Source: Schmidtea polychroa
Taxonomy: Eukaryota
Reading direction: 5' to 3'
NCBI GenBank assembly: GCA_044892525.1
Contig: CM097885.1
Location: forward strand, 32,304,001 to 32,368,000
DNA length: 64,000 bases
The notes under the pieces were generated by a model. It saw nothing but the letters and a program-made list of their open reading frames with translations. It did no database searches and was not told where the DNA came from. A program made the position numbers and the translations under genes. Shown here piece after piece: positions 1,801 through 39,827 of the stretch (position 1 is the stretch's first letter; the number at the start of each line of letters is the position of its first letter).

Positions 1801-2009
1801 ATTTTAAAATTTATTAACAAAAAGTTGAAGGTGTTTGAGAATTGAAATTTTTTAATGAAAATTTTTATGGAATAATTTTTTAAGTAATTTTTAATGGAAA
1901 TTTTTATGAAATATTTTTCAATGATAATTTTAGATGGAAATTTTTAAGATAATTTTTAATGAAAATTTTTATGAAATATTTTTCAAAGACAAATTTTAAT
2001 AATAATTCA

Positions 2010-3506: not shown

Positions 3507-3558
<52 letters not shown>

Positions 3559-7677: not shown

Positions 7678-7755
7678 CTAGTTTATTACATAACAAGCCG
7701 TGACTAGTTTATTACATAACAAGCCGCAACTAATTTATTACATAACAAGCTGTGA
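7678..7755 (+). repeat. Three 26-bp tandem repeats at the inner end of the arm
   Basis: ctagtttattacataacaagccgtga x3 (degenerate); mirrored at ~8775-8852. Confidence 0.9.
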
Positions 7756-7760
7756 ATGGT

Positions 7761-11700: not shown

Positions 11701-12714
11701 AACTTGAATGATCAGTATTTTTTTTATTTACTGGATGATTAATGATTAGAATTTTTTCCTGTCCATTAATTAAATTTTTATGATATTTATTTTGAATAAT
11801 TTAAATTTTTACAATAATTTAATCAAATTTTACCTAGTTATTGATGCCTTGAGTTCAAATAATTTTCCATCTAATTTTTCAAGTGATGAGTATTTGCTTT
11901 TAAAGATCAATTTGTTAGTACATAGTTGTTGGTTGTAAGTAGTTGGTTGACTTTTTAGATTTTGATAAGAAAATAGTGTATGCGATGAAGAATAATTTTT
12001 TTTATTTAATTGCTATTATTTTTATGTGTTGTTAGTTGATTGTTGGTACTAAGTTGTTGGTTTCTTGTATTTGGTAGTTGGTACAGTGTTGTTTACTGAT
12101 TGTTGTTATATAGTTGTAGGTTGTTAGTACTTGGTATCTAGTACCTGGTTGTTGTTAGTTGTTAGTACTTGGTAGCTAGTTAATGGGTAGATGGGGGTTG
12201 AGTGTTACCAATACCCCTACGACTAGTACCCTTCCGACTAATACCCTTACGACCAGTACCCTTACGACCTGTACCTATTTGTTAGCACCTGTCGGATAAA
12301 CTCAGAGTATATATAATAAAACTGATCAACAATAAGTATTTATTGAATGCGATTTTTACTTTGCAATAATAAGTTATCATTTAAAAGAAGAATGTTTTGT
12401 AAATTAGAATTCATTAGTCTTTCATTGTAATTATTTTGAATTCCAAGTGGTGATGAGTTGTGGTTTTTTGATGAAAATCATCATTTTTGTTAAATTTGAA
12501 AAGGTTTTTCTAATGATTGTAATTAAATATATTTTTGAAGATAGATAAAAAATTAATTTAAAAAGCATTTCATAAAATACAGTGAAGAATATTTAGTAGT
12601 TAGTTGTAAGTATCTGGTTGTTTGAGAGTTAGTTAGTACGTGGTATCATGTTGTAAGTATTTGTTAGCACCTAGTTTAAAAAATAATCAGTAACCGATTG
12701 TTGGTAACTGTTGA

Positions 12715-12769
<55 letters not shown>

Positions 12770-15472
12770 CATTTAAATTTCCATTTAAATTTCCATTATA
12801 AATTACATTTCTCAAAAAAGTTGGTGGTTATTCAATCTTTTGATAATAAATTTAAAAATCTTAGTTTAATTTACTTAGTACATTAATTATTTAAAAATTA
12901 TTACTTTAATTTACTTATTTAATTTAAAATTTGAACCTTAATTTACTTTTTTAAAAATTATTACTTTAATTTACCTAATTATTCTTTATTTCTTAATTTT
13001 ACACCATAATTTACTTAACAACTAATTATAACCCTTATTTTCATATTTAACCAATAATTTCATGTGGTCATCTGCTTGTAAGTGTTTGGTATCTAGTTGA
13101 CAGTGCTTATTACTAGGTAAGTTACTTGGTTGTTAGTACTTGGTATCTAGTACCTGGTTGATGTTGGTTGTATGTACTTGGTATCTAGTTGTTAGTAACT
13201 AGTTGTAGGTAATTAATGCTTAGTAGTTGGTAACTGGTTGTTAGTACTTGGTAGTTGGTAGCTAGTTGGTTGTATGTACTTGGTATCTAGTTGTTAGTAA
13301 CTAGTTGTAGGTACTTAGTAGTTGGTAATTAATGCTTAGTACCTGGTTGATGTTGGTTGTAGGTACTTAGTAGTTGGTAGCTAGTTGGTTGCTATCAGGT
13401 AACTAGTAGTTAGTAACTAGTTGTAGGTATCTGGTTGTTAATACATGTTCGTAATTTACTGGTACTTGGTATCTAGTTGTTAGTTGTTAGCGGGTTGTTA
13501 GTAACTAGGTATCTAGTTGTTAGTACTTGGTTGATAATGCTTAGTACCTGGTTGATGTTGGTTGTTAGTACTTAGTAGTTGGTAGCTAGTTGTTAGTAAC
13601 TAGTTGTAAGTACTTGGTATCTGGTTGTTAGTTGTTATCTGGTTGTAGGTACTTGGTATCAGGTAACTGGTTGTTAGTATCTAGTTGTAAGTACTTGGTA
13701 GTTGGTTGTTAGTTGTAGGTATCTGGTTGTTAATACATGTTCATAAGTTACTGGTTGTTGGTACTAAGTTGTTGGTTTGTTGTTGAATTATTATTAAAAT
13801 TTGTCTTTGAAAAATATTTCATAAAAATTTTCATTAAAAATTATCTTAAAAATTTCCATCTAAAATTATCATTGAAAAATATTTCATAAAAATTTCCATC
13901 TAAAATTATCATTGAAAAATATTTCATAAAAATTTCCATTAAAAATTAATTAAAAAATTATTCCATAAAAATTTCCATTAAAAATTACCATTGAAAAATA
14001 TTTCATTAAAATTTCTATTAAAAATTACTTAAAAATTATTTCATAAAAATTTTCATTAAAAAATTTCAATTCTCAAACACCTTCTATTATTTTGTAATTA
14101 AATTTTAAAATCTTACTTTAATTTACTTATTACATTACTTTAATTTACTTTTTTAAAAATTATTACTTTAATTTACTTATTTAAAATTTTTTACCATTGA
14201 TTACTTAATTTAAAAATTTGGACCATTATTTACTGTAATTTAATTTTTAAGAACTTAAATTTACTTTAATTCAAAAATTTGGACCATTATTTACTTTAAT
14301 TGAAAAATCTGGACCATAATTTACTGTAATTTAATATTTTAGAACCATAATTTACTTTAATTTAATTTTTAGAACCATTATTTACTGTAATTTAATTTTT
14401 TAGGACCATTATTACCTTATTTGAAAATTTGAGCCATAATTTACTTTAATTTAATTTTTTAGAACCATTATTTACTTTAATTTAAAAATTTGAGCCATAA
14501 TTTACTGTAATTTAATTTTTTAGGACCATAATTACCTTATTTGAAAAATTTGAACCATAATTTACTTTAATTGAAAAATTTGGACCATAATTTACTGTAA
14601 TTTAAAAATCTTAGTCCATAATTTACTGTAATTCAATTTTTAGACCCATAATTTACTGTAATTTTAAAAAATTTACCACGTTTTTTAGTGTAGACCACCT
14701 TTGTCTATTGAAATTCTCAGGACCAAGGAGACCCACCTTAATTTAATTCGAAAAATCCATGCTTTTTTATTGATAGTCGGATTTTTGTATTGAAAATATC
14801 CTGAGACCTTAAATTACCATGCTTCTTTATTGAAGACTCACCTCACTATAGTCTGAAAAATCCTTGGCTTTTTTAGTGGTAGTCGGATTTTTGTATTGAA
14901 AATATCCTGAGACCTTAAATTACCACGTTCTTTTTTAGTGTAGACCACCTATTTCTCAGGACCAAGGAGACTCACCTCACTATAGTCTGAAAAATCCTTG
15001 GCTTTTTTAGTGTAGACCGGCTTTTTGTATTGAAAATATCCTGAGACCTTAAATTACCATGCTTTTTTATTGATAGTCGGATTTTTGTATAGAAAATCCC
15101 AGGACCATCGAGACCCCCTCACTATAGTCTGAAAATTCCATGCTTTTTTATTGATAGTCGGATTTTTGTATAGAAAATAATTTTTTGTATTGAAAATCCC
15201 AGGACCATCGTTTTTGTATTGAAAAAATTTTATTTGTATTGAAAATCCTAGGACCATCGAGACCCTCTCACTATAGTCTGATAAATCCTTGACTTTTTTA
15301 TTGATAGTCGGATTTTTGTATTGAAAATCCCAGGACCATCGAGACCCCCTCACTATAGTGTGATAAAAAAAAATTTGGACCAAAAATCCCTGAAAGCAAA
15401 AAAATGAGTTGGGAACAATTGCGTAATAAAAATTTGGGAACAAACCCCTCCCCCCCCCGGGGGGGGGGGGGG
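8770..15472 (-). repeat. Right arm of giant inverted repeat
   Basis: Reverse complement of the left arm; near-identical in the inner ~1.8 kb, visibly diverged with indels at ~10600-11900. Confidence 0.92.
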
Positions 15473-19852: not shown

Positions 19853-20718
19853 TGTTGGGGTTCAACAAGAGAGGCACAAAAATGAGGTGAAAATTGATAA
19901 AAACACCAAATTCAAAATAAAAATTTAAAGTACAAAATATTAATTAAAAAAATCAAAATTTTAAAAATGAATATTTTCTGGGGGAAACTGGTATGGGCGG
20001 ATGCTAAATAATGAGACGAGTTCAGCTATAATAAAATAAAATCAATGGGGGGTCCCTAAAAGGAATAAATTACAAAAAACAAAAATTAATTAAAATTAAT
20101 TAACTAATGGAAAACCCGAGCTAATGGGAAACCCGAGCTAATGGAGAACCCGAGCTAATGGGAAACCCGATACAATGGAAAACCCGAGCGAATTGAGAAA
20201 TCCAATTTCGGGAAGGCAATTAATTTAGCCGGATAAAAAGCGCCGTCAAAGGAAATGAGCAAATTCCCTGCAATTAAATTAGACCTCCAAGAGGAAGCCC
20301 GGGGGAAATAAAACCAAAAATAATTGGCAAAAATAAAGTCAATTAACAAGCGAGTATAAAAGCAACTGACAAGAAAACAAAATGCCAGTTGGTCGAAGAA
20401 AAGAAAACAGAAGTTGACGAGAGTGAAAAAGGAAATATCAAAGTTAGTCGAAAGTAAACCATATAAAAAAAAAAATCGAACGTACCAGAAAGGGATATCT
20501 CCCGTTGGAAGATCTACCCCTGCGTGAGATTTGTTGGCAATTGAAAAGTGCAGACAAAACCTGATTGTATCAAGTGTGAGTAAACTAATACAAGTGTAAA
20601 AGTGTAACTGCATCAGTGTCAATAAAGATTTTGTGTTGGGTTATTTGTTTATTTATTTATTTGGAAAAGAACACAAAGGAGTCAGACCGTAGTACCGACT
20701 TGCATTAAAAACCCAACA
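19853..20718 (+). repeat. 5' LTR (866 bp)
   Basis: TG...CA ends with a 7-bp terminal inverted repeat; candidate TATAAAA at 20355; AATAAA at 20621 followed by a GT-rich tract. Confidence 0.97.
20106..20190 (+). promoter_or_regulatory. Five 17-bp tandem repeats in the LTR (putative U3 enhancer array)
   Basis: aatgg(g/a)(a/g)aacccgagct-type unit x5; also present in the 3' LTR. Confidence 0.55.
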
Positions 20719-20722
20719 TATT

Positions 20723-20740
20723 TGGTGAGCCCGACGTGAT
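20723..20740 (+). promoter_or_regulatory. Primer-binding site, tRNA-Trp type
   Basis: TGGTGAGCCCGACGTGAT starts after a 4-nt gap from the LTR and matches the tRNA-Trp PBS of avian leukosis viruses (TGGTGACCCCGACGTGAT) at 17/18. Confidence 0.9.
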
Positions 20741-21186
20741 CAAAAGTCGGTGAAGATTTGTTGAAATTGTGAAAGTATTTGACTATAATATCGAATAATA
20801 CCGACGTGATCAAAAGTCGGTGAAGATTTGTTGAAATTGTGATAATATTTGAGTGATACCGAGGAATAAAAAGGTCGGTGAAAATTTGTTGAGATTAGTA
20901 AAGTATCAAAAAAAAACAATTTGGAAAAAGATAATAATAATTAAATAAATAAATATTGAAGTGAAACGTTTATTTGAAAGTGGTGAACATTATTCGAGAA
21001 TTATTAAAGTGGTGAATTTATTATTGAAGCAAAGTGGGAAAATTTGTAACGAGTGATTGTTGAAAAGTCAAAATTAAAACGAAAGGTAAATTTTGTAATT
21101 GTAATACTTTAAATTTTAGACGAGTAAAACCTGTGTTAACCAGATCATTTTATAAATTGAGAAGCCAAAAACTAGTAGAGAATATA

Positions 21187-24100
21187 ATGAGTACCCAAAG
21201 ACAAGTTAATAATACAAATAATAATGATGAAACACCGGTGTCCACAGTTTCTGTGGGGAATGCCAGGGAAGGCAATGATTATGCGAGTTGCCAAAAACTA
21301 CCTGTGGATCAGTACGGTGGAGATCCGCTGGAATTTGTCGATTTCATGGCAGATTACTATATGTATGCGACGGCCTATGGATGGAGCCAATCGATAATGG
21401 TGCAAAGATTACCGCTATACCTAAAAGGAGCAGCCAGAGAAGCGTGGCAACAAATTGATAAAAGAATAGTAGCAAATGACTGGACCAAGTTGAAAGACGC
21501 TTTAGCTACGAAATTAATCGGAGGGGATATCAAACGGATAATGCGACAGAAATTCTATAACCGCGTACAAAAGCCAGAGGAATCGGTAAGTGAGTTTGCT
21601 TATCATTTATCAACTCTTGCAGAGAAAGCGTTCGAAGTGAAACCAGAACAGGCCGAGATGGCAAAGCAGGTAAAAGAATTATTGCAGGATCAATTCTTGT
21701 CAGGAGTAAAGAAAGAAATTAAAAAGGCTCTATGCTATGTTGATTTTAATGACTTTGATGAATTGATCAAAAAGGCAATGAAAATTGAGCTAAATTTAAA
21801 AAGCACACAGTCAAAATCAGAATCGTTTGCAGTCATCTCAGGCGCAAGCGAAAGATCAGTAACCCCAATTAGAAACAATCGTTTTCAACAAACAAGTAGT
21901 CCATCACCAAAATTTAGATCCAAATTTGAGTCGAACAAGTCAACAGATATTCAAACAGATGGAAAGGAAGGTCCCATCCAATGTAGTCATTGCCAAAGGA
22001 TTGGACACCATGTTAACCAATGCTGGTTTAAAAATAGAGTACAGAGAAGCCCAATTCCGATTCAGTGTGATAATTGCCAAAGAATGGGACATGACAGCAA
22101 TCAATGCTGGTCCAAAAATAATGTACAACGGAGTCCAAGGCAAATGTGGCCTGATTGGTTAAAAGGAAATGGTGCGAAAAGTTTCACTAAAGCGAACATT
22201 AATGAGCCGAGAACTAATGATAACTTACAATGCTTTAATTGCGGAAGAAAAGGGCATGTGTCACGAAATTGTTTTGCCAGGTCAAGATCAACATCAACTT
22301 CACCATCACCGCAGAGAGATAAAGTAAATCTACAAGGACAAATTCAATGTCATTCATGCAGAAGTTATGGACACATGGCTAGATCATGTCCAAGAAATGT
22401 GGATAAATTCCAAAGGCCCATATTAAAGAAATCGATTAGGTTTCAGAGTGACAAACCGCAGATGGATAATGTAGCTTTTATTCAGCCAGATAATTTTAAT
22501 GAAAGAATTGAAAGCGAAGTGAGAGAAATGGGTCGACGTTTGGATCGATTGATGTCAAAGTTTGAATCAGAAGAGGACTACAATAATCACATGATGTATG
22601 AGTCGCAAGAGGAATTGAATGAAAAAGAGTCGAAAAGGAGAGTTATAAAAGATGATTTAGAAAGTGAAAAAGCAACAATGATAATGACCAGAATCGAAAA
22701 ACTAATTGGAAATAATGAAATAGAGTCGGCTAAAGTGATCAAATCGTTGAGAGAATTAAGTCAAATATCTTTGAGCATGAGAAAGATAAAAAGTGTAATT
22801 AGCTTGTGCGTTAACTACTATAATATGAATCCAAAGTATAAAGAAGAAATTAAAGAATTAATGAAAATATTCGGAAAAGCTTTGAGAGAGAAAACAGGGT
22901 TAGATTCCATCTTTGTGGAAGTAGTAAATGGGATTGATAAAAGTGTATTATGTTGTCGTTGTGAGGCAAATGATTGTGTAAATGATTTAAAGAATAAATT
23001 AAAAGAAAAAAAGGAAGGATGCATGATAGAGTTGAGATTTAATGAGAGATTGTTAGAAAATGACGAATTTTTGGTAGATTGTGGATTTATACCAGGGAGT
23101 ATAAATGAATTAAAAATGGAAAATGTAATTACTAGTGATGAAATAATGAGTAGTAAAATAATAGACAAAAGGAATTCAAGGGAGATATTAGAGGAATTAA
23201 ATGATGCGTTATACATTGGAGATGAAGATGAAATCGATGAGAAGTTACAGATTATTGAGAAATTAGAAATGGAGGACAACGATAAACTAAAAATAGTGAA
23301 TACAATACGACCATATTTACATGTGAAAACCAGATATGCCAAGTTATTAAGAAGTTTATTGCAAAGATTGGGCAAGGAGCTCAGAAAGGCAAGAGTAGAG
23401 TTAAAGCCATTTTTGATAGCATTAGATTATGAGGGATATGGCAAAACGGAATATGTAGACGAGCATTGGTGTGCAAAGGTCCGAAAATTGCGGAAGAGAG
23501 CGGCTGAAACGCTGGGAAAAGATGGAATTATTATAGTAATGTACAAAGGTGAAGAACTTGACGATGATGAATACCTATATGATTGTGGGTGTGTACCACA
23601 AGAGCTGGATGAAAACGGATATTTGATCCGAGATGGACGAGTGGGATATTTAGTGAACCATATAGTCGTAGTAAAAGGAGTGAGTTTAGAAGTAAATATT
23701 GAGTCTAACAAGCCTGACACAGAGGAACAAGATGAAAAAGTTAAGGGAAATAAAGAAATTGATGAAATCGTTAGTGATAATGAGCAAAAAGATCCTGATA
23801 ACAAAGATCAGTCCACGGAACCAGACGTACAAGGAGAGCTACTTGTACCTGAAGGCGAAATAAATGGTGAAATCAAAAATAAGAAAGTTAGAACTTTATA
23901 TGAAATAAAGAAATATTTAGTGAGGCTAGAACAGGACGTCGACGAAACTAAGAAAATGTTGAAACATCTCGTTAAAGCAGTATATCCAATGTTCGACATA
24001 GAAATAGAGGTAGAGGATGAACTGAAAGAAATAGTTAAAGAGATGAAGAATAGGCTTCCTGAAGTGATGCAGAAATTTGGCGAAGAGAATACATTCTGCG

Positions 24101-27100
24101 AGAGATCAGTAATTGAAAATTTGGCAAAAAATGAAATTAATAAGGAAGTTATAATAATAGCTTTAACTTATGTTGTTTTAGAAATTGGAACGCATACGTT
24201 CGCAAGGTCAGACAAGTTAGAAAATTTGATAGACATCGCTGCCCGGCTAGTAAACGAATATTTAATGAGCTGGGTAAACGAAAAAGGTGGTTGGAAAACA
24301 CTGTGTTCATCTCTAACAGAAAAGAAAAATGAGAAGCAAGAAATGAGTCCACCCCAAAGACGAGTAAATGAAAGAGTTAAGCCAGAACTAAGAAAAACTA
24401 TGATATTTCCATGGGCGATGTTTATGGTGATTACGTTTTGTGCAATAATTACACAGACATCATCTTTAGTTGCGTACGATTGTTCCCAAATTGAAATGGG
24501 AAAAGTTTATTCGGTAGTAGATATGTCGGAATGCCCAGGTGCGTATCCGAGCAGTTTAAAAATAGAAAATGACGTAAAATATTATGTGTATCAAGAGTCT
24601 GATCTGCGAAGAACTCAAGTGAGAGAGTGTATTGTCAAACATACAACATTTGTATTCTATTGTGGTAAATGGAGCCATACGTCACTCATAAAAATGCATG
24701 CGATACCTAGGCCAGTCGAGGTGCTTCCAGAAAACTGTCTAGCAGCATTTCAAACAGGAGAATTAAAAATAAGTCCAGAAATTCGTTTAAAGGCAAAATT
24801 GAACCATAGAATACGAGAAACAATAATTGTAAAGGGAGTAATGAAAGCAAATGGCGACTGTGAAGGTGAACCATATAAAATGAACGGTAAAATTATTCAG
24901 CAAACAGTGGTGCTAGAAGAATATCTCACGGAGTTGAGAGAGTTCGAAGGAGCTTTCGATGATGATACGGGAAAATTACAAACTCATCCATTCTGTAATA
25001 TGAAACAAACACATTGTCAAACAGGGGAATCGATTCTTGTTTATAATGTAGAAACAAATAAGTGTAATTTAGCGCACTTAAAAACTATGAACTTTAAAGA
25101 GCTAGTAGGAGAACAGTTTAGAGATAAACCAGATAATTTCAATATGAATTATAGACCAAATAATACCATTAAATCAACCCCAGTATGGACAAAGCAAATG
25201 GGAACAGTTATAATGTCTACGTTACCAGCAGATGGAATGCGATTTATAAAAAAGGAAATCACAAATAAATGTGGTCGAATGGTATATGTAACAAATTATA
25301 AAGGTGTTTACGTGCCTAGAAATGTTGTGGAAGAAGCAAAAATTAAAATTCACAGAGATGACATTAAACTTACTCATTATTTTAATAATAAAATTGATTA
25401 TTTGTTTCATTTTAGTCAAAACATCATGGAAAATGTATATAGAGAAATGATTCTGAACGATTGTAAGTTGAATAAAGAGATTCTCCGAAATCGGATGGCG
25501 ATGGCAATTACGAATCCAAATTTAGTAGCACCTATGCTAATATCAGAAAATGGAGTGTTTGCGAGAATATTTGGAGAAGCATTATACAGTTACAAATGCA
25601 AAGAAGTCACAGTGAAAATTGCCAAATACGAAAAATGTACGAATGAATTACCAGTAAGCTTTGGGGGAAAGGTACGATTTATGGAACCGATAACTAGAAT
25701 CTTGCTTGATGAACAAACTAAACCAAAACTTTTGCAATGCAATCGATTATTAGCCCCTTTATACCGATTAGCTACAGACTCATGGATAGCCTTACCAGAT
25801 TATCGTGGGGTCAAGACTCCAGACAAACTAGAATTAACAAATTTAGAATACCTGATAAATTTCACATCACTAAACAAAATGGCACAAATGGGCTTGTATG
25901 CAAGCGAAGATATCGAAGAAGCTCAAAGGAATTTGTTGTTTCCATCCAAAAAGGAACGGATAATTTCAGAAATGATTGACACAGTATTACCGAATGGAGA
26001 AGGAACAGTAAATTACGAAAATTTGCTAACACCTGATCATTTCAAACGAGCTACATATAAAACGATGGAAAAGATTTGGGGCAAGTTCATGTTTTTGGGA
26101 CAAGCATGTGCAGGTTTAATTGGAATTTACGTGATTATGATAACGGCAAAGGTGGTAGTGTCGCAAATGTTGTCAGTACATCGAATATACGCAATATCGG
26201 GATGGTCATGGAAATTAGTTATTGGTTGTATTCCATTGTTGGCTAGATTCTTTATTACAGATCATCAATTTAAAGAAATGGCAAGAGTAAGGGCACAATT
26301 AAGAAATGGCCGAAAAAGTGAGGAATCGACGTGTCAGTCGGAAGATAAAAACGACGATCATAATGATGATAACAACAACGGGGAATCGGAGTATAAATGC
26401 TTTCGAAAAAGTGTAATAAAGAGTAAAGTAGAGCCAGAGTCCAGGTTCTTGCTTGAACCAATGCCAAAATTAAGCGGGATTGATACTCTTAGTAGATGGT
26501 ATACCCCGACATTTAGACCAACAGCACCAATATATCCAAATGAACAATTAAAAGAAATGAAATCTGTAGATAATATCACAATCGAATTAGAGAAGATTGA
26601 ACCAACGAGTGCTGAAATTGAAAGAAAGAATATGCTTGGTCTACCATGCAGCTATGCACTAATGACAACAGTAGTAGGAGGAAAACAACCTCGAATAAAC
26701 ATACAGTTTAACAAGAGAAAAGTGGAAGCTTTATTAGACTCAGGCTCAAGTCATACTATAGTAGCGGAAAGTTTCTTGACGTATCAGGAGAAAGCCAAAA
26801 TAAAACCAACGAATCACATTATTAAATCAATGTCACATAATGCACTAAATATTGTTGGAAAATTAGAAGTTAAACTGATAATTGGAGAGCAAGAAATAAT
26901 TCATTGGGTATCAGTGATGAGAAAAAGTCCTGTAAAATGTCTAATTGGCATGGATGTCATGGAGCAACTACATGGAATCTCTCTTGATCTGAGAACTGGA
27001 AAACTAATAAAAGGACAAATGGGTGAAGTAGTGCCTGAAGTAGGAGAGGTATTTCTAAACCAAACATTGGAAGTACCACCAAAAAGCGAAGTAATCTACT

Positions 27101-29487
27101 ATGCAGATGTTATGAGGGTCTCAGATGAGGAGTACATATTTGAGCCAAATCAAAAGCTGGTTGAAAAATACGATGTGCCTATGTGTGATGAAGTAGTGAA
27201 AGTCCAAAATAAGTCAGTACCAGTTAGAATAGCGAATTATAGTGCAAGATCCGTTGAGATAAAACCCAAAACCAAATTGGGAAAATTAACAAAAATCAAA
27301 TCAGAGGAAGCTCAGAAGTTACCGAGAAATATAAAAATTTATAAAGAACCTCAGATCACAAGCAAAGATTTGACGGATTTGCAAAAACAAGAATTCGGTG
27401 CATTATTAAAGAAATATAGAAATGTATTTGCAAAACATGAGTATGATCTGGGACTCACTCAGGTGATTGAGCATGAAATACCATTACTCAACGAAACCCC
27501 AATAAAATTACGGCCGTACAGAATACCATACATACATCAGGAAGAAAGTGATCGGCAAATCAAAGCAATGAAAGAATTCAATATAATAAGAGATAGTTCC
27601 TCACCATTCTCATCATCAATAGTAGTAGTTAAAAAGAAGGACGGTGATTTAAGATTTTGTGTTGACTATCGAAAATTGAACCAAGTAACGAGAAAAGATA
27701 CATATCCTATTCCTGTTCCACAGGAAATGTTCGATCAGATGGGGGAGGTGCAATATTTTACGGTAATAGATCTTAATAAAGGATACAATCAATTTAAAGT
27801 CAAAGAGGAAGATAGAAGGAAAACTGCATTTTCAGATGGGAAGGGTCTATATGAGTTTAACGTGTTACCATTCGGATTAACAGGAGCACCTGCTACATTT
27901 CAGAGAGGTATGAATTTTGTTTTGCGCGATATACCACATGCATTAGTGTATATTGACGATATTATAATATTTTCGAATAGTTTTCAGGAACATTTGCAGG
28001 ATGTGGAAACAGTATTCAAGCGATTGTTAGAAGCAAACTTAAAAATAAAACCCTCCAAATGTGAATGGGGGAAATCTGAAGTCGTTTATGTGGGTCATAT
28101 CATTTCGCGTCGAGGTTTGCAACCAAATCCAGAAAATGTAGAAAAAATTGGGAAATATCCTATTCCCAAGGATGTAGATCAGGTTCGACAATTTCTGGGA
28201 TTAGCCAGTTATTACAGAAAGTTTATTAAAAGTTTCTCACACGTAGCACAACCTTTGAACATGTTATTGAAAAAGCAAGCAAAATTTAAATGGACAACAG
28301 CTCAGCAAGAAGCGTTTGATAAACTCAAAGAAAGCTTAATAAAACAGCCGATATTAAGATGTCCGAACTTTAAAAAACCGTTTATATTAATGACAGATGC
28401 CAGTAATTTCGCATTAGGCGCGGTATTAGGACAGCAAGTAGAAGGGGAAAAAGATCATGTAATTGCTTATGCCAGCAGATCATTGAAACCTCATGAAAAG
28501 AATTATTCAACAATCGAAAAGGAAACGTTAGCATTGGTATATGGGATAACTACTTTTCGACAATATCTAGTGGGCAGAAAATTTGTCGTCTTTACAGATC
28601 ACAATCCGTTACAATGGCTAATGAAGCACAGAGATTCGGCCAGTAAATTAATTAGGTGGTCAATTGCGTTACAAGAATATGATTTCGAGATAAAGTATCG
28701 TACAGGAAAATCAAATGCAAATGCGGATGCTATGTCGAGAATACCCGTAGAAAATAATGTTGATCAAGATGAGAAAAATTGCGAAAATACCATATTCTTG
28801 GCAATTAAAACGGTAAATAATATCGAAAAATTACAAGATGATCAGGAAAATGACGAGGAATTAAATCAGTTACGTCAACATGCTGTCTCAATCAAAAAGG
28901 AGAGTGACTGGAAACATATTGCCGAAGAGAACCATAAATACATTATTCATGATGGTTTGTTAAAATGTGTACAAAATGAAAATTTGTTAATTATTGTTCC
29001 GACAAAACATCGAAAAGCATTGATGTTGTTGTATCACGATGGAGCATTAGGAGGGCATTTATCAGCGCGAAAAACATTATCAAGATTGAAACAGAAATAT
29101 TATTGGAAAACGATGGAACAAGATGTCAGACAATGGTGTCATACGTGTGAGATATGCCTAACAAGACGAAATACGGGACGGAAAATAAAAGTTCCGCTTA
29201 AGCCTATGCCAGTGCCAAAGGCGCCAATGGAAATGACAGCAATGGACATCGTTGGTCCATTGCCGGAAACAACAAATGGCAACAAATACATTATCGTTTT
29301 TTGCGATTATCTTACTAAATGGCCAGAAGCTTATGCAATGCCAAATCAGAAAGCAGAAACAGTTGCGAAAATATTTGTGGAGAATATTATTTTTCGATAC
29401 GGAGCACCAAAGAAATTACTTACAGATCAAGAACAAATTTTCAGAGTGAATTATTTAAATCAATCACAGATTTATTTGGTATATTAA
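21187..29487 (+). CDS. Polyprotein part 1: Gag - UBL x2 - Bcl-2-like - envelope-like glycoprotein - PR - RT - RNase H - IN N-terminal half
   Basis: ORF 21133-29487, first ATG 21187. Four CX2CX4HX4C knuckles (21982-22389); LLDSGS protease (26731); LPFGL and YIDD (27949) RT; TDAS...DAMSR RNase H; HHCC and the first two Asp of integrase. Confidence 0.95.
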   Translation: MSTQRQVNNTNNNDETPVSTVSVGNAREGNDYASCQKLPVDQYGGDPLEFVDFMADYYMYATAYGWSQSIMVQRLPLYLKGAAREAWQQIDKRIVANDWTKLKDALATKLIGGDIKRIMRQKFYNRVQKPEESVSEFAYHLSTLAEKAFEVKPEQAEMAKQVKELLQDQFLSGVKKEIKKALCYVDFNDFDELIKKAMKIELNLKSTQSKSESFAVISGASERSVTPIRNNRFQQTSSPSPKFRSKFESNKSTDIQTDGKEGPIQCSHCQRIGHHVNQCWFKNRVQRSPIPIQCDNCQRMGHDSNQCWSKNNVQRSPRQMWPDWLKGNGAKSFTKANINEPRTNDNLQCFNCGRKGHVSRNCFARSRSTSTSPSPQRDKVNLQGQIQCHSCRSYGHMARSCPRNVDKFQRPILKKSIRFQSDKPQMDNVAFIQPDNFNERIESEVREMGRRLDRLMSKFESEEDYNNHMMYESQEELNEKESKRRVIKDDLESEKATMIMTRIEKLIGNNEIESAKVIKSLRELSQISLSMRKIKSVISLCVNYYNMNPKYKEEIKELMKIFGKALREKTGLDSIFVEVVNGIDKSVLCCRCEANDCVNDLKNKLKEKKEGCMIELRFNERLLENDEFLVDCGFIPGSINELKMENVITSDEIMSSKIIDKRNSREILEELNDALYIGDEDEIDEKLQIIEKLEMEDNDKLKIVNTIRPYLHVKTRYAKLLRSLLQRLGKELRKARVELKPFLIALDYEGYGKTEYVDEHWCAKVRKLRKRAAETLGKDGIIIVMYKGEELDDDEYLYDCGCVPQELDENGYLIRDGRVGYLVNHIVVVKGVSLEVNIESNKPDTEEQDEKVKGNKEIDEIVSDNEQKDPDNKDQSTEPDVQGELLVPEGEINGEIKNKKVRTLYEIKKYLVRLEQDVDETKKMLKHLVKAVYPMFDIEIEVEDELKEIVKEMKNRLPEVMQKFGEENTFCERSVIENLAKNEINKEVIIIALTYVVLEIGTHTFARSDKLENLIDIAARLVNEYLMSWVNEKGGWKTLCSSLTEKKNEKQEMSPPQRRVNERVKPELRKTMIFPWAMFMVITFCAIITQTSSLVAYDCSQIEMGKVYSVVDMSECPGAYPSSLKIENDVKYYVYQESDLRRTQVRECIVKHTTFVFYCGKWSHTSLIKMHAIPRPVEVLPENCLAAFQTGELKISPEIRLKAKLNHRIRETIIVKGVMKANGDCEGEPYKMNGKIIQQTVVLEEYLTELREFEGAFDDDTGKLQTHPFCNMKQTHCQTGESILVYNVETNKCNLAHLKTMNFKELVGEQFRDKPDNFNMNYRPNNTIKSTPVWTKQMGTVIMSTLPADGMRFIKKEITNKCGRMVYVTNYKGVYVPRNVVEEAKIKIHRDDIKLTHYFNNKIDYLFHFSQNIMENVYREMILNDCKLNKEILRNRMAMAITNPNLVAPMLISENGVFARIFGEALYSYKCKEVTVKIAKYEKCTNELPVSFGGKVRFMEPITRILLDEQTKPKLLQCNRLLAPLYRLATDSWIALPDYRGVKTPDKLELTNLEYLINFTSLNKMAQMGLYASEDIEEAQRNLLFPSKKERIISEMIDTVLPNGEGTVNYENLLTPDHFKRATYKTMEKIWGKFMFLGQACAGLIGIYVIMITAKVVVSQMLSVHRIYAISGWSWKLVIGCIPLLARFFITDHQFKEMARVRAQLRNGRKSEESTCQSEDKNDDHNDDNNNGESEYKCFRKSVIKSKVEPESRFLLEPMPKLSGIDTLSRWYTPTFRPTAPIYPNEQLKEMKSVDNITIELEKIEPTSAEIERKNMLGLPCSYALMTTVVGGKQPRINIQFNKRKVEALLDSGSSHTIVAESFLTYQEKAKIKPTNHIIKSMSHNALNIVGKLEVKLIIGEQEIIHWVSVMRKSPVKCLIGMDVMEQLHGISLDLRTGKLIKGQMGEVVPEVGEVFLNQTLEVPPKSEVIYYADVMRVSDEEYIFEPNQKLVEKYDVPMCDEVVKVQNKSVPVRIANYSARSVEIKPKTKLGKLTKIKSEEAQKLPRNIKIYKEPQITSKDLTDLQKQEFGALLKKYRNVFAKHEYDLGLTQVIEHEIPLLNETPIKLRPYRIPYIHQEESDRQIKAMKEFNIIRDSSSPFSSSIVVVKKKDGDLRFCVDYRKLNQVTRKDTYPIPVPQEMFDQMGEVQYFTVIDLNKGYNQFKVKEEDRRKTAFSDGKGLYEFNVLPFGLTGAPATFQRGMNFVLRDIPHALVYIDDIIIFSNSFQEHLQDVETVFKRLLEANLKIKPSKCEWGKSEVVYVGHIISRRGLQPNPENVEKIGKYPIPKDVDQVRQFLGLASYYRKFIKSFSHVAQPLNMLLKKQAKFKWTTAQQEAFDKLKESLIKQPILRCPNFKKPFILMTDASNFALGAVLGQQVEGEKDHVIAYASRSLKPHEKNYSTIEKETLALVYGITTFRQYLVGRKFVVFTDHNPLQWLMKHRDSASKLIRWSIALQEYDFEIKYRTGKSNANADAMSRIPVENNVDQDEKNCENTIFLAIKTVNNIEKLQDDQENDEELNQLRQHAVSIKKESDWKHIAEENHKYIIHDGLLKCVQNENLLIIVPTKHRKALMLLYHDGALGGHLSARKTLSRLKQKYYWKTMEQDVRQWCHTCEICLTRRNTGRKIKVPLKPMPVPKAPMEMTAMDIVGPLPETTNGNKYIIVFCDYLTKWPEAYAMPNQKAETVAKIFVENIIFRYGAPKKLLTDQEQIFRVNYLNQSQIYLVY
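22909..23670 (+). other. Two ubiquitin-like domains within the polyprotein
   Basis: IFVEVVNG..SVLCCRCEANDCVNDLKNKLKEK..IELRFNERLLENDEFLVDCGFIPGSINEL aligns by eye to the ubiquitin pattern. The second copy is KVRKLRKRAAETLGKDGIIIVMYKGEELDDDEYLYDCG. Confidence 0.7.
24016..24315 (+). other. Bcl-2-family-like domain within the polyprotein
   Basis: BH2-like YLMSWVNEKGGWKTL, preceded at Bcl-2-like spacing by a degenerate BH1 region (NEINKEVIIIALTY in place of NWGRIV). Confidence 0.7.
24400..26256 (+). other. Envelope-like glycoprotein (chuvirus G-like, class III fusion type) embedded between Gag and protease
   Basis: Signal peptide MIFPWAMFMVITFCAIITQTSS|LVAYDC; Cys-rich ectodomain (VRECIVKHTTFVFYCGKWSH, GDCEGEPY, IFGEALYSYKCKEVTV, KCTNELPVSFGG, FMEPITRIL); hydrophobic segments at ~26086-26178 and ~26194-26256. 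Confidence 0.8.
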
Positions 29488-31376
29488 AACTTAGTACCTC
29501 ACCATATCATCCACAAACAGATGGTCTAGTTGAAAGATTTAATGGGACACTAATTAATATGATATCATCCTATGTAAATAGGAAACAAAAGGATTGGGAT
29601 TTATTCATTAAACCATGCCTATTTGCATACCGGAATGCAGTAAATGAAAGCACTGGAGAAACACCCTTTTATCTCATGTATCTACGGCGAAGCAATATGC
29701 CAGTCGATCTAGAATTTCAGTCACCTATTTCCCAATATATGGATGTGTCAGATTATAAAATAGCTATGCATGAAAGACTACAGTCAGTATGGATCCAAGC
29801 TGGACTTAACATAAGGCATCATCAAGAAGCGTATAAAGAATGCTATGATAAACGCGCACGGGCGCATGACATTAAAATTGGAGATCTCGTGTATATAAAC
29901 AAACCAGAACCAACAAAAGGCTTGTCAACGAAATTGCAACGACCGTTTAAAGGACCATATCTAGTGTGTGATACGACAGAGACTAACTTAAAATTGCGTC
30001 CACAAAACAATAAAAAGGCTGGGACAATCATCGTTCATGTAAACAGATGCAAGAAGATAATAGAAGATGAATCACGTTATCCATTGAGATCAAAACCAAA
30101 TAAAGATGCAGGGAACCCAGTAATTAAACAAAAGTTTACAAAAAACCCTGCTCCATTGAGTTACATCAATAAAGTTTTATTGATTACAACAGTAATGATT
30201 ATCAATATAATGTCAGTAAATGCAGTGAGAGTATTCCCGTTATATGCAACTAATACAGTTGTATTATTAGACAAAGTTCATATTTATTCAACATGTACTC
30301 AAATAGTTTGGGTTTATTATGCTGGAGGAGCAGAAGAAATAGAGATAGATAATCTAATAAACTATTTCGAACCCCCAATAAAATTGAACAGCACCAAAAA
30401 TATTTATGTGGCTAGACAATTAACAATGAATTATGAATACCCTTGGTTAATTACGCAATTGGATTCGAAAAGTAATAATACAAAAATACAAAATCTTATA
30501 CGTATTAATATTTGGACAAAGAGATTACATAATCGAGTATCAATTGAACCACTGGTAAATGGAATTGACATATATTGGGAACCCCAGGAATCCCAACAAG
30601 TAAAAGCAGTTTTTCAAAATTATGCGATAGATACATTGAATAGCAGAAAACCCTTTATAAAGTATGCAAATTTAAAATTACATCATAACTATAATATTCT
30701 GATTCATTATTATGAAAAATCTTTATATGAAAACGGAACTGAAATTGATAGTCAATGGATCAGAATACACTCTAGTCAACATATGATACGATTAGTTAAT
30801 GAAACAAATCGGGTTACTTTTCATATTTTCAATCAATTAGTGAACGTTACCCGACAAGCGGAGCCCAATCAAAAAGCTATTTTATATTATTATGGAAAAA
30901 TTCAATCGATATTAAATGAAAAAAATAAATCTCAAATATTAACTTTTCGTCAACGTTCACCAATATCAACGTCAAAATTTGTGTTCATTAAAATAAAATA
31001 CTATAGACGTTCTCTATTTTCAAATTTATGGCAATTAACATTAGTGGAAAATAAAATTGTGCAAATTCCATCTATTAACTCGCAGTATGGAAATCGAAAC
31101 AAATCAAATCAGTCCAACCGAACCCCTAGCTCTGTCAACGTAATCATCTTTTCTAGCATCAATGAGTCAATGACTAATAACGAAACCATATCGTCATTAA
31201 AAACTGACAGTGAAATTGTGTGTGTCACATTATTAATAACTACTCTCATTATAACAATCTCTCTTATTATTCTCATTATCATTGTGCTAATTGAATTTCG
31301 AACAATACCCAAACCTTCTACGAATCGATCCGAGATTGCGAGACCTTGGATCGTTTATGAAGAAACATTTGTGTAG
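29431..31376 (+). CDS. Polyprotein part 2 (after 1-bp frameshift): IN catalytic core and C-terminus, then a second signal peptide and a type I TM glycoprotein
   Basis: Frame of ORF 29319-31376. TNFQSELF...SPYHPQTDGLVERFN completes D-35-E; GPY motif; hydrophobic KVLLITTVMIINIMSVNA (30171-30224); ~10 N-x-S/T sequons; TM at 31215-31293. Confidence 0.9.
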
Positions 31377-31805: not shown

Positions 31806-33275
31806 ATGGAACAAATACAATTGGCAAGGTCGACCTACGACAGCTACATCAAAATGAAGAACAATCATGCCGGACAAAAAGTATACCGGATCAACGACAA
31901 TCTCCAAATCCCAAATTATTTAAGAATTGATGACCGAAAAATGAAGATCCAAATGTTTACGATCATGAGGATGTCAAAATTGCGATTAGCAGAAGAAGTC
32001 GAGATGTCAAGGAAAGAAGAATATCATCTACATGTGATCAAGGGTACCGTTGAGGTACTGACGAATGACAACAAAGTGTGTTGGGAACTAAAAAAATTTA
32101 CGTCGTGGAAGCTGCAGAGAGACTTCATGTGGAGAACGTTACGAGCAGCGAATGAAGAAACAACCATGGTAGTGGAAATCAGAATCGAAAATGAAGCGAA
32201 CGAAGTTCCGCAGATGCAGCCAAGTGCAAGAGAAGATCCAATGTTAACGAAAATTTCGAAAGAAATGTTGAAAAGGAAAATGTCGTTTCTCAGAAAGGAA
32301 ATGGATTTGGAAGAAATCCGCAACAGAATATTGTTTATTGATGCAGAATATGGCACGTCTGAACAAGGAAAAATGGTCCCTCTAGCACTAGCGATTATGA
32401 ATTATTATGGAAAAATAATAAAGAATATATACTTGACTCCAAGAGGAAAAATTCGCCATTTTAATTCAAGGATTCACGGAATCACAGAAGTAGCTAGCAG
32501 GAATCAATGCGATCAATATGTGGCAACAAAGGACATCCAACAATTGACAGTTGGCAAGATACTAGTGGGCCATGATTTACATGCAGAATTACAATATTTG
32601 GGAATATGGATTGAGCAATTATATGGCATTCGTGATTTGGCAGCGGCACCAGCACTCCAAAACAGGGGAGTAACCAGGAAAGGAGAATGGTTCAAATTAC
32701 AAACCGTAGTGAGAGAAATATGTGGAGAAGAGACACAAATTGGTGTGCATTCGGGTCTAGAGGATGTGAAGAGCATTCGCAAGGTATATCAGAGAGTGGA
32801 AAATCAATGGATTGACGATATACCAATGCCCAAAAACCTACCATCAAAGAAATATTCGTTGGAGGAATATAAAAAACTTCGAGAGGTACCATCAGCATCA
32901 ACTGCAATAGCGGACAAAGTGGCACAAATTCTGGTTGACGATGCAATGGAAGCAGAACAAATTGACTTGACAAGCGAGGAGAATGTGGAGATGGAGACGG
33001 AAAATCCATTAATTCCATTAAAGTGGGCCACCGAATCGTTTTTGGAAATTTCACAAGAATGTGTTTCAGTAATGATAAGTGTTTCGATGGTAAGAATACA
33101 CCCAACACTTGAGTATGGTCCAATGCCCGAATGTCGACAAGCGAGAAAAAGGAAAAACACTTCAAATATTGATGTTGGGGAGACTGTAACCATCGATGGG
33201 GTAATCTATGAACGAGAAGAAACAATAATACGGTATCGGCATGGAACCAAACAATTGGAAATAAAAATGAACTAA
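31806..33275 (+). CDS. DEDDh 3'-5' exonuclease (ISG20/REX4-like) accessory protein inside the LTR element
   Basis: 489-aa intact ORF: ExoI FIDAEYG, NSRIHGIT, ExoII KILVGHDLHAELQYL (Glu at the usual Asp), IRDLA, ExoIII HSGLEDVKS; basic RKRK near the C-terminus. Confidence 0.88.
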   Translation: MEQIQLARSTYDSYIKMKNNHAGQKVYRINDNLQIPNYLRIDDRKMKIQMFTIMRMSKLRLAEEVEMSRKEEYHLHVIKGTVEVLTNDNKVCWELKKFTSWKLQRDFMWRTLRAANEETTMVVEIRIENEANEVPQMQPSAREDPMLTKISKEMLKRKMSFLRKEMDLEEIRNRILFIDAEYGTSEQGKMVPLALAIMNYYGKIIKNIYLTPRGKIRHFNSRIHGITEVASRNQCDQYVATKDIQQLTVGKILVGHDLHAELQYLGIWIEQLYGIRDLAAAPALQNRGVTRKGEWFKLQTVVREICGEETQIGVHSGLEDVKSIRKVYQRVENQWIDDIPMPKNLPSKKYSLEEYKKLREVPSASTAIADKVAQILVDDAMEAEQIDLTSEENVEMETENPLIPLKWATESFLEISQECVSVMISVSMVRIHPTLEYGPMPECRQARKRKNTSNIDVGETVTIDGVIYEREETIIRYRHGTKQLEIKMN

Positions 33276-33413
33276 ATTAATATGTATATATATATAATAT
33301 TTATAAAAAATAAATAATGTTGAACTCGCGTTGTCTCAGTTATTAATTGGTAGCTCATCAGTTAAACCCCATAATTAAAAAAAATGTATAAATAATAAAT
33401 AAAACTTTTAATA

Positions 33414-33480
33414 ACAACATACACATTCCCAATTGTTGGAGTTTGGCTACCCTGGACAACAATTGGAAATGTGTGGTTGT
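33414..33480. other. Long hairpin in the 3' non-coding region of the retroelement
   Basis: acacattcccaattgttg (33421-33438) pairs 17/18 with caacaattggaaatgtgt (33457-33474), extended by acaac/gttgt. Confidence 0.75.
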
Positions 33481-34080
33481 CAGTAGTCATTAATTTTTCC
33501 ATTGAAATCGTTTATGAATAAATGGAACTATATCGTATCTAAATCTACATTTGGTTATAAGTTTCTCTGTGTATCTCGGTGTCTCTATATCTATATTTAT
33601 TTATCCAAAACCATTTATTTATATCTAGGCATAAAATTTGAGTATAGACTATTTTGCTTTGATAACTAAATATAATTTTATAAAATTGGCCCATGACAAT
33701 TGAATTTCAAATAGTGTAAAAAAAAAAAAAAAAAAAAAAAAAATCAACAAAATTATATTAACTAATATCTACATACTTCATGGTTTCATATTCGCTTGAA
33801 TTTCAAATAGTGTAAAAAAATCAACAAAATTATATTAATTAATATCTACATACTTCATGGTTTCATACTCGCTTCGAAATCAACAATATTCATGTTTCGA
33901 CGCACCATTTTAAGTTGGAAATAGATTTTCAATTTCCAGTTAATACAGTGACAATTGCGGTAATTAATTTTAAGTATATGTTTCAATTTATTGTATTAAA
34001 TCATCAAAGAATCTGAAAGTTATTTTACACAATATAATAAATAATCGATATAAGTTTATATTAACAAAAAATTTATCCAC

Positions 34081-34817
34081 CTGCATAAGAGGACGATCTT
34101 GAGGTAATAATAAATAATTCTTTGCTTCATCAAATAATCAATATAAGTTTATATTAACAAAAAAAAAAAAAAAAATTTTTATCCACCTGCATAAGAGGAC
34201 GATCTTGAGGTAATAATAAATAAAGTGTACTTGAAAATTATGATGTGTAAATTTATCAGCAATGGTTAATAAGTCATTACAAGCATGAGTATCAGCAAAG
34301 GCTTGGATACCTAAGCAATTAGATGGATCAAGCTGCTGTTTTAAAAATTCACAACAAACATCTTAAATTTCTGATAATTGTAATAAACAAGCAGCTGGTA
34401 GTAAACACTGTAGATTCCATTCTTCAATAACAATTTGAGATATATAACAAAATTCTACCAATGCTTCAACAGCACGTTCATCGATATCCCTTAATGTTAC
34501 CTAATATCGTTTGATAAAGATAACCAAATAGTTAATTACTTCATTTTGTAGTGATTCAGATAATTCGCCAGTAAACATAGCTTTAAAATAATGACTACAT
34601 GCAGATAACACAATTCTATGGACTAAGATTTTTTTTGTTGACCAACAATCAAGGCTACGTCACATAATTCGCCGTGTTTTCTTAGTTGATTAATGGATTC
34701 CAAAGTAATTTTTGGGTGCTTCTCAGAGAAGTAGCATAATTTGTTAAACGGATTAGAATTGAATGCACCCCCAGAACATTGATCTCCAGTAATAATCTTT
34801 TTCTCATTTTGTTGCAC
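34081..34817 (-). pseudogene. KLHL20: Captured, disabled and rearranged KLHL20-like (BTB-BACK) gene fragment
   Basis: [48 protein letters not shown]|intron|[70 protein letters not shown], plus [16 protein letters not shown]. Frameshift at ~34630, TAA stop at 34363-34365, 39-nt GT-AG intron at 34501-34539. Confidence 0.9.
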
Positions 34818-35300
34818 ATCACAATAGTTAATAGAAAATGGTTAAAAATATGAAGAAATAAATAAAATCCCTTACCTATTAATAAATTATTCACCAACCA
34901 TTCAAATCAAACTACGAGTCGTACCGAGGATTTCCGCGGCTTCGGTGCGTTCGGTGGCTTCTGATTGGCTTTCTCCTTATCTCGTGTAAGAACTGAAAGA
35001 AGAAAGAAATAAATCTATTTTGCGAAACAAAATTAAATTACCCTTGAATTAGTTGTCCAAATTGTAGATATGAAAAAAATTCAATTTGATTGACCATATC
35101 AATAATTTCTGCAATTAGATAGAATCAGTGGGTAATGCAAATATGAAATTGAGAAAGGAATTCAAACAATAATTTGATAATATTTAATTGATTGCCCTCA
35201 ACTGCAATTAAATTAGTTGCTCATTAGTAAAATGAGTTCGAGATTTACAAAATTGCAAGAAAAAGAAAAATTGATATAATAATAATAATTATTATTATTG

Positions 35301-35343
<43 letters not shown>

Positions 35344-35556
35344 AAAAAAATCATAATATAATAATTAGATATAATAATTAGATATAATAATTATTGCTAT
35401 TATTGTTATTATCGTTATTATTGTTATCGGTAGGAATTATTGTTATTATTATCGGTAGTATTATTATCGTCATTATTATTGTTATTAGTAACATTATTAT
35501 TTATAATGGTAAATTAGACTTATTATATACATGCAGATTCGAGGTCGAATCTAAAT

Positions 35557-35569
35557 AAAAGGGGGGAGA
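35557..35569 (+). promoter_or_regulatory. Polypurine tract
   Basis: aaaaggggggaga just upstream of the 3' LTR. Confidence 0.9.
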
Positions 35570-35571
35570 TA

Positions 35572-36436
35572 TGTTGGGGTTCAACAAGAGAGGCACAAAA
35601 ATGAGGTGAAAATTGATAAAAACACCAAATTCAAAATAAAAATTTAAAGTACAAAATATTAATTAAAAAAATCAAAATTTTAAAAATGAATATTTTCTGG
35701 GGGAAACTGGTATGGGCGGATGCTAAATAATGAGACGAGTTCAGCTATAATAAAATAAAATCAATGGGGGGTCCCTAAAAGGAATAAATTACAAAAAACA
35801 AAAATTAATTAAAATTAATTAACTAATGGAAAACCCGAGCTAATGGGAAACCCGAGCTAATGGAGAACCCGAGCTAATGGGAAACCCGATACAATGGAAA
35901 ACCCGAGCGAATTGAGAAATCCAATTTCGGGAAGGCAATTAATTTAGCCGGATAAAAAGCGCCGTCAAAGGAAATGAGCAAATTCCCTGCAATTAAATTA
36001 GACCTCCAAGAGGAAGCCCGGGGGAAATAAAACCAAAAATAATTGGCAAAAATAAAGTCAATTAACAAGCGAGTATAAAAGCAACTGACAAGAAAACAAA
36101 ATGCCAGTTGGTCGAAGAAAAGAAAACAGAAGTTGACGAGAGTGAAAAAGGAAATATCAAAGTTAGTCGAAAGTAAACCATATAAAAATAAAATCGAACG
36201 TACCAGAAAGGGATATCTCCCGTTGGAAGATCTACCCCTGCGTGAGATTTGTTGGCAATTGAAAAGTGCAGACAAAACCTGATTGTATCAAGTGTGAGTA
36301 AACTAATACAAGTGTAAAAGTGTAACTGCATCAGTGTCAATAAAGATTTTGTGTTGGGTTATTTGTTTATTTATTTATTTGGAAAAGAACACAAAGGAGT
36401 CAGACCGTAGTACCGACTTGCATTAAAAACCCAACA
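35572..36436 (+). repeat. 3' LTR (865 bp)
   Basis: Matches the 5' LTR; the only difference spotted by eye is in an A-tract (A11 vs AAAAATAAAA). Confidence 0.97.
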
Positions 36437-38768: not shown

Positions 38769-39827
38769 ATGAATGCTAGCATCAAAAACGTCTCTCGGTA
38801 TTTTGAAAATGATCCTGACATTTATTATGTTGTGGGACAATATTTCCTATTACCATCATTTGCTATAGGAATCGTTTTGAATATTATAATAATTGTACAG
38901 CTTGAACAGTTAATTTCAATGTATCGTAAAATCGGTGGCCTGTTTGTCCTGCAATGCGTTTCTATTGTTGAAATTTTAAATTTATTTAATTCTGGATTCC
39001 TGAATTGGTTATTCAACTACACAGAAGTCATGTTCAAAATCCAATCGTCGAAATTTAGTATAAATCTCATTTGTAAGGTTTACAACTTTTTACCCCATAC
39101 CGGTCTGTTGATTGGCGAATGGTTGGGAGTTGGCCTCTCCATTGATAGATTACTTTATACGATTTCTAAAAGGAAATCTCGACAGTATTTTACAGTGTTC
39201 CGATTAAAGATCGGTATGATAATGTTTTTTGCGGTTTCATTATCGGCTCTGTTTAATTATTTATGGATGTTCGGTTGGATTGTCCCAGACCCATTAGGAC
39301 ATAGACAATGCAATGTCTTACCGGAATATTTCTATATCTATTATCATTTCATTAACAAGCTAGAAATCGTTTTTGAAATTCTTCTACCTGAATCTATAAC
39401 GTTAACAATTTTGATAATTGTTGTATTTTATCTGCTGAATTATAAGAAAAAAAATTTCAATTACAACAATGAACGAGTCAATATAGCACTGAGAGAATCC
39501 TGCCATGATATGAATTCCCCAGAATTCGTCGGCCGAAGAATCGACAGAGAGGTTAATGGAAACTTAATCAACAGATTGATCACTGCGATATTTATTATCT
39601 CATCAATTGTGAATATTAGTTTTGATTTTACGAGAAATTTTCAAAAAATAACCCAGACATTCGGTAAAGAACCAATTTTCTCTAATATCAGTTTTATAAT
39701 TAATAATTACATTCATCTCGGAAAATCAGTTATTCGAGCAATTATCACAGAAATCTTCGTTGCGTATTTAACAATAGGAAAAATAATAAATATCAACAGA
39801 AATTATAACAACAATTGTGAAGTTTAG
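38769..39827 (+). CDS. Orphan rhodopsin-like (class A) GPCR, single ORF
   Basis: 352 aa with about seven hydrophobic segments; GIVLN in TM1, ICK at the start of TM3, LSIDRL (DRY-like), Cys in ECL2, LLP in TM5. Confidence 0.8.
   Translation: MNASIKNVSRYFENDPDIYYVVGQYFLLPSFAIGIVLNIIIIVQLEQLISMYRKIGGLFVLQCVSIVEILNLFNSGFLNWLFNYTEVMFKIQSSKFSINLICKVYNFLPHTGLLIGEWLGVGLSIDRLLYTISKRKSRQYFTVFRLKIGMIMFFAVSLSALFNYLWMFGWIVPDPLGHRQCNVLPEYFYIYYHFINKLEIVFEILLPESITLTILIIVVFYLLNYKKKNFNYNNERVNIALRESCHDMNSPEFVGRRIDREVNGNLINRLITAIFIISSIVNISFDFTRNFQKITQTFGKEPIFSNISFIINNYIHLGKSVIRAIITEIFVAYLTIGKIININRNYNNNCEV

Follow-up and report, generated by a model that had tools for sequence, protein, structure and literature searches.

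Retroviral late domains lie in Gag, where PT/SAP motifs bind TSG101 and YPXnL motifs bind the V domain of ALIX, as described for HIV-1 p6 (PTAP and YPXnL), EIAV p9 (YPXL), and MLV (PSAP/LYPAL) (PMC8402826). The candidate motifs reported here belong to the same two classes, with PTAP upstream, and likewise occupy a disordered region before the protease. They differ in that they are located on an envelope tail, with a membrane-crossing ectodomain between them and Gag.

The element that carries them is of a described type. The gB-type errantiviruses of flatworms, nematodes, and bryozoans (Chary & Hayashi, PMC13524379) are LTR elements with the same gene order and a gB-type fold; the closest one listed is Smed_errantivirus_1. 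The main text of that study treats ectodomains and contains 0 matches for PTAP, PSAP, late domain, ESCRT, ALIX, TSG101, cytoplasmic, or tail, while the present analysis concerns tail motifs. As the element type has already been described, the new part is the tail motifs, not the element class. In 2012 the route by which errantiviruses engage ESCRT was described as unknown (PMC3383448).

Glycoproteins of the Jingchuvirales (PF24664) have a homologous ectodomain and transmembrane region and the same tail motifs, but they are stand-alone proteins of negative-strand RNA viruses and lack a protease. The ICTV lists the jingchuviral virion and replication as unknown and the genes as GP, NP, L, and unassigned ORFs (PMC10770922); one described chuvirus has no genes beyond L, G, and N. 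For hartmanivirus GP2 and hantavirus Gn, it has been suggested that a virus without a matrix protein uses the glycoprotein tail to reach ESCRT (PMC6261641), but the suggestion is speculative there and concerns a predicted ALG-2 motif, rather than PTAP plus YPXnL, on a fusogen of an unrelated type. In bluetongue virus NS3, cytosolic late motifs aid ESCRT-dependent release (PMC4452911), but the protein is non-fusogenic and the motifs reported are PSAP/PPRY. Finally, the spike-EABR construct is a membrane protein whose tail ESCRT motif promotes release, indicating that an ESCRT-binding sequence on a fusogen tail can suffice for budding, but it is artificial (PMC10121106).

Full-text literature searches, with most subscription journals outside their reach, turned up no paper describing late motifs in the tails of chuviruses or gB-type errantiviruses. 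The terms late domain and budding gave no match in PMC13524379, PMC10084718, PMC7642597, and 10.1101/2024.11.25.625296, nor did late domain in 10.1101/2020.01.02.893420. Both papers in which 'chuvirus' and 'late domain' occur together deal with arenaviruses.

The host element

The window (the whole stretch of DNA that was analysed, 64 kb from Schmidtea polychroa) contains an LTR element with the gene order Gag, Env, PR-RT-RH-IN, in which a gB-like class III ectodomain lies between a signal and a transmembrane segment (Table 1). Judged by these features it is a gB-type GAG-ENV-POL errantivirus (Ty3/gypsy), the type published in PMC13524379; by eye, 65 of the first 73 ectodomain residues match Smed_errantivirus_1 in the supplement of that paper. 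A structure model of Env (pLDDT 79.9) matches herpesvirus gB structures, at best with E 2.3e-15 and a TM-score of about 0.35. The sequence of this Ty3/gypsy copy identifies it as a recent insertion, since its LTRs are nearly identical and it has AATT flanks, a primer-binding site, and a polypurine tract. The primer-binding site (20723-20740, +) may correspond to a tRNA-Trp primer, which it resembles; for the Smed elements, PMC13524379 lists no tRNA type.

Table 1. Features of the element and of its envelope tail in the window
Feature	Position	Strand	Basis or remarks
5' LTR (TG..CA), AATT target duplication	19853..20718	+	primer-binding site from 20723
Gag side: capsid-like domain, four CCHC knuckles, two weak repeats, Bcl-2-like domain	21133..24294	+	
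Internal signal / anchor segment before Env	24397..24453	+	hydrophobic peak aa 1089-1107
Chuvirus/gB-type class III fusogen ectodomain	24460..26082	+	Pfam PF24664, E 1.4e-86 (Monjiviricetes fusion glycoprotein)
Env transmembrane helix, strongest hydrophobic segment	26104..26160	+	peak aa 1658-1676; Lys next
Second, weaker hydrophobic segment	26185..26256	+	most likely amphipathic or re-entrant, not spanning
Disordered Env tail / Env-protease linker	26263..26682	+	aa 1711-1850; pLDDT <50; inferred cytosolic
PTAP, TSG101-type late motif (candidate)	26518..26529	+	aa 1796-1799; sequence and family enrichment
IYPNEQL, hydrophobic-YPx3L, ALIX-type late motif (candidate)	26530..26550	+	aa 1800-1806; local identity peak versus P0038
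Aspartyl protease, in frame behind tail	26683..26973	+	Pfam RVP, aa 1851-1947
RT, RNase H, integrase zinc finger, start of integrase core	27628..29436	+	Pfam
3' LTR, 99.5% identical to 5' LTR	35572..36436	+	polypurine tract just before

In this copy the reading frame breaks inside the integrase core (an old lesion, recoding, or an assembly error). The frame at 29319-31376 (+) encodes the rest of the integrase followed by about 400 residues with two hydrophobic stretches, many sequons, and no Pfam match, perhaps a second membrane glycoprotein. Farther downstream within the LTRs, an ORF at 31806-33275 (+) has a weak RNase_T exonuclease match (E 0.037), and the roughly 2.3 kb before the 3' LTR (33276-35571) contain an ATT microsatellite and no long ORF. 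Outside the element, the window includes a foldback structure of roughly 15 kb (18-15458), with arms up to 99% complementary, and a 352-aa multi-pass ORF (38769-39827, +) that is host GPCR-like by eye, with no Pfam match at E 0.1.

On the Gag side, a Bcl-2-like domain (24022-24453, +) is matched as a fragment with Pfam E 3e-4, below the curated cut-off, and adjoins the Env signal segment. That segment may also serve as the membrane anchor of the domain. A GGW motif in this region recurs at a similar place in three relatives (P0013, P0020, and P0003). Between the zinc knuckles and this domain (22660-23640, +) are two weakly similar repeats (24% identity, E 7e-6). The first shows a faint ubiquitin-family match (E 0.05-0.08), and searching the Atlas with the repeat gave no usable match. 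A Gag-fused ubiquitin-like domain could provide a second route to ESCRT.

A motif pair in the envelope tail

The peptide PTAPIYPNEQL is encoded in frame at 26518-26550 (+), corresponding to aa 1796-1806 of a 2784-aa ORF (21133-29487), and is preceded by an R (26515-26517). Within this single Gag-Env-Pol ORF it lies about 120 residues C-terminal of the transmembrane helix and 44 residues N-terminal of the protease, and it matches the consensus of an ESCRT late domain (PT/SAP plus YPXnL). A sequence-only reading had proposed late-domain-like motifs in the envelope tail just before the protease, and the in-frame translation and domain positions bear this out. The surroundings are disordered in the model (pLDDT <50 at model residues 616-747), although a shallow alignment of the tail may partly explain this low confidence.

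This PTAP is the sole P[TS]AP in the six frames of the window. In 200,000 shuffles, the chance of a PTAP in the 140-aa tail is 0.003 and that of both motifs within 10 residues is 1.5e-5; in 2,000 local shuffles, the chance of an adjacent pair anywhere in the ORF is 0.001. These single-locus figures are post hoc, so the real evidence is the family test below. An overlapping reading frame as the source of local conservation was rejected because the other two forward frames are closed by stops at the motif. When contigs of four sequencing runs were compared with 25700-27300, no variant fell inside the motif among the 40 of 400 variants listed, and one diverged contig fails to align over 26490-26585. 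The sequencing runs listed as containing this sequence include none recorded as RNA.

Enrichment in homologous tails

A phmmer search with an Env-tail-PR query gave 1,464 matches, of which the best 150 were analysed; the tail counts below come from these 150. The transmembrane anchor is covered in 122, and the other 28 are fragments that do not reach it. After four tails shorter than 25 aa were dropped and the query excluded, 118 tails remained: 15 with a protease motif downstream and 103 ending within 260 aa, some of the latter being fragments. Most of the tails belong to stand-alone glycoproteins. The null model was 1,000 per-tail shuffles, and no shuffle reached the observed counts of P[TS]AP, YP, [LIVMF]YP (hereafter ΦYP), ΦYPx(1|3)Φ, or paired motifs.

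P[TS]AP is present in 20 of the 118 tails, compared to 0.86 expected and a shuffle maximum of 5. YP occurs in 80 (23 expected), ΦYP in 66 (4.7 expected, shuffle maximum 14), and [LIVMF]YPx(1|3)[LIV] in 54 (1.3 expected). Thirteen tails contain both P[TS]AP and hydrophobic-YP, against 0.05 expected, and in 10 of these 13 PTAP precedes YP. Removing matches that possibly span the query motif leaves P[TS]AP, ΦYP, and ΦYPx(1|3)Φ in 20, 63, and 51 of 115 tails, with the enrichment unchanged. An unbiased k-mer count ranks LYP, IYP, and MYP as the top 3-mers and PTAP, KLYP, and PSAP as the top 4-mers; PSAP and PTAP, with 10 each, are also the commonest PxxP words. Neither YP nor P[TS]AP is found in 34 of the 118 tails, some of which are fragments.

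The signal is specific to these motifs and to the tail. In the same 118 tails, PPxY (5 versus 3.1 expected), FP (15 versus 10.7), and dileucine (10 versus 7.4) are not enriched over shuffles. The ectodomains of the relatives (57,378 aa) contain no P[TS]AP and 27 ΦYP against 34 expected, 62 disordered windows outside the tails contain neither motif, and the regions upstream of Env (7,885 aa) show no motif excess. Pol regions show at most a small excess, in a comparison whose tail counts include the query. When 114 ectodomains were placed on a FastTree tree (midpoint root, five short rows omitted), 21 PTAP tips needed 21 changes and ΦYP needed 29, so the PTAP enrichment does not reflect one expanded clade. 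By these sequence counts, the motif pair in the tails is not a product of chance. This bears out the earlier view that the adjacency of the motifs is suggestive, with enrichment far above the shuffles across the fusogen family, and widens the observation from one element to that family.

Proposed role and alternatives

Based on the motifs and their enrichment, the tail motifs are most likely ESCRT-recruiting and probably act as an ALIX/TSG101 late domain through which the envelope tail drives ESCRT budding. Flatworms possess TSG101 and ALIX. In the model we propose, the polyprotein would enter the membrane at the internal signal with its Gag side cytosolic, the ectodomain would be luminal, and the transmembrane helix would return the chain to the cytosol. 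The tail and PR-RT-IN would then hang on Env, and the tail would tether Pol at the budding membrane until the protease acts, freeing Pol downstream of the motif and leaving the motif on Env. The two halves could act as a bipartite late domain, PTAP binding the TSG101 UEV domain and IYPNEQL (YPx3L) the ALIX V domain. ESCRT recruited by clustered Env tails may then sever an enveloped particle from the plasma membrane or release it into multivesicular bodies. Counting against this reading are the scarcity of strict P[TS]AP among protease-bearing relatives (1/15), the motif-free tails (34/118), the frame-broken integrase, and the report that HIV p6, which also has this motif pair, produced little budding when placed on spike (PMC10121106).

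Sorting without release is the one alternative that our tests do not weaken, although we consider it rather unlikely. Here the motifs would bind ESCRT but direct Env into multivesicular bodies or lysosomes, for turnover that limits cell-cell fusion, and no particle would be released. A precedent is the membrane protein PAR1, whose YPX3L is bound by ALIX and sends it to lysosomes (PMC3341166). However, the pairing with P[TS]AP, and the position of PTAP in front, reproduce the retroviral late-domain layout, and jingchuviruses have no recognised matrix protein to serve the budding function (PMC10770922). Sorting into multivesicular bodies and exosome-like release are also not mutually exclusive.

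YxxΦ is an endocytosis and sorting signal read by AP adaptors, and most motifs in the family are YPx1Φ, which also fits it (YPx[LIV] in 58 of the 118 tails). It is improbable, however, that the Tyr motif is such a signal and PTAP incidental. The query motif itself has E at Y+3 and so does not fit YxxΦ, and ΦYPx3Φ forms that cannot fit it are enriched (5 of 115 tails, 0.58 expected). Moreover, YxxΦ lacking Pro at +1 (Y[^P]xΦ) is not enriched in the 118 tails (34 versus 34.9 expected), position -1 of YP is L, I, M, or V at 64 of 84 sites, and P[TS]AP is enriched independently of the Tyr motif.

Retroviral proteases cut at aromatic-Pro sites, and four of the 16 Env-PR proteins have a YP close to the likely protease start, 29-32 residues ahead of the catalytic Asp. 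That the Y|P bond is a cleavage site freeing the protease N-terminus is nevertheless highly unlikely: in the query, YP lies 68 residues upstream of the catalytic Asp, FP shows no enrichment, and the motif is equally frequent in the 103 tails without protease (ΦYP 56 versus 4.0 expected), named chuvirus proteins among them.

Topology of the tail

The budding reading places the motifs in the cytosol, and the evidence centers on the two hydrophobic segments after the ectodomain. Lys and Arg mark the cytosolic side of a transmembrane segment (the positive-inside rule). A KD of 1.6 is exceeded by the first segment in 107 of 119 proteins and by the second in 11, and in 82% of relatives the residue behind the first segment is K/R. 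The second segment is amphipathic, with about 3 K/R per 15 residues after it; in the query it is borderline (KD 1.42 for a 19-mer, 1.59 for a 17-mer), and the Env model splits it into two short helices. No further hydrophobic segment is present in the query tail (aa 1711-1850, maximum KD 0.75), and a third segment before the protease is absent in all 16 polyproteins. Two membrane passes would therefore strand Pol in the lumen. We infer from sequence and model that the Env tail is very probably cytosolic. The earlier placement of the motifs on the cytoplasmic side of the membrane is thus most likely correct, as suggested by the weakness of segment 2, its modelled helices, and the in-frame Pol.

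A tail that is luminal through two spanning helices, or a motif that is a chance match in this element, has very little probability: the hydrophobicity of segment 2 is conserved across relatives and the sequon tests lean slightly to the lumen (61 tails with sequons versus 53 expected, p 0.065; 94 forward versus 69 reversed), but these tests lack power because the luminal ectodomain is itself not enriched (284 forward versus 324 reversed), and the hydrophobicity, charge, and Pol arguments above speak for a single pass.

Conservation and origin of the motifs

Among the 15 Env-PR relatives, YP is kept in 13, ΦYP in 10, and strict P[TS]AP in one. The nearest relative alignable through the tail, P0038, is outside the 118 tails and reads PPAP-IYPMEKL; it is identical to the query at 14/21 positions of the motif block, compared with 24/80 and 12/38 on either side and 26/73 across the protease. 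Judged by conservation in relatives, the test that the sequence-only reading set for itself, the result is split: the YP half is upheld and strict P[TS]AP is not. These comparisons indicate that the candidate ALIX-type YP motif is the stable core, while P[TS]AP is labile and has been gained and lost repeatedly. Word-index protein searches gave little: one match in one case, a single match starting behind the motif in another, and none in a third. In three relatives (P0003, P0010, and P0154), the Env tail is followed by two or more protease-like D[ST]G segments.

The sequence-only reading had supposed that budding signals moved from Gag to the envelope, which our comparisons do not support. In 67 stand-alone tails, the median distance between the last YP and the C-terminus is 15 residues. 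Names were found for 8 of 29 distinct proteins, comprising 7 chuvirus or chu-like glycoproteins and one beetle protein; the 29 were picked mostly for bearing motifs, so they establish the presence of the motifs in real chuviruses but not their frequency. The exact PTAP-Φ-YP spacing recurs in P0144 and in P0095, a named chuvirus protein for which no relative was found among viral contigs. Since stand-alone relatives, some of them named chuvirus G proteins, carry the same motifs near their C-terminus, the sequences indicate that the budding-type signals came with the fusogen and are a property of its family.

The Gag side of the query has no P[TS]AP or PPxY and a single ΦYPx3I (VYPMFDI at aa 950). 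In the 10 polyproteins with more than 300 aa upstream of Env, P[TS]AP and PPxY are absent from that region and ΦYP is present in three, including the query. It is hard to credit the motifs as a p6-like remnant of the Gag end, stranded next to the protease by an insertion of env between Gag and Pol; their site just upstream of PR is that of retroviral p6/p9, but glycoproteins with neither Gag nor Pol bear the same motifs.

Implications

A broader proposal, to which we give even chances, is that fusogens of the chuvirus/gB type carry their own budding module. The tail would take the place of the jingchuvirus matrix protein and of the errantivirus Gag late domain, so that one captured gene would supply both entry and exit, and in a single-ORF element the tail would also tether Pol to the budding membrane. 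If true, a late domain on the fusogen tail would provide one testable exit mechanism for errantiviruses and jingchuviruses, and would offer a natural parallel to spike constructs engineered for self-budding. It would also suggest why this envelope recurs in retrotransposons.
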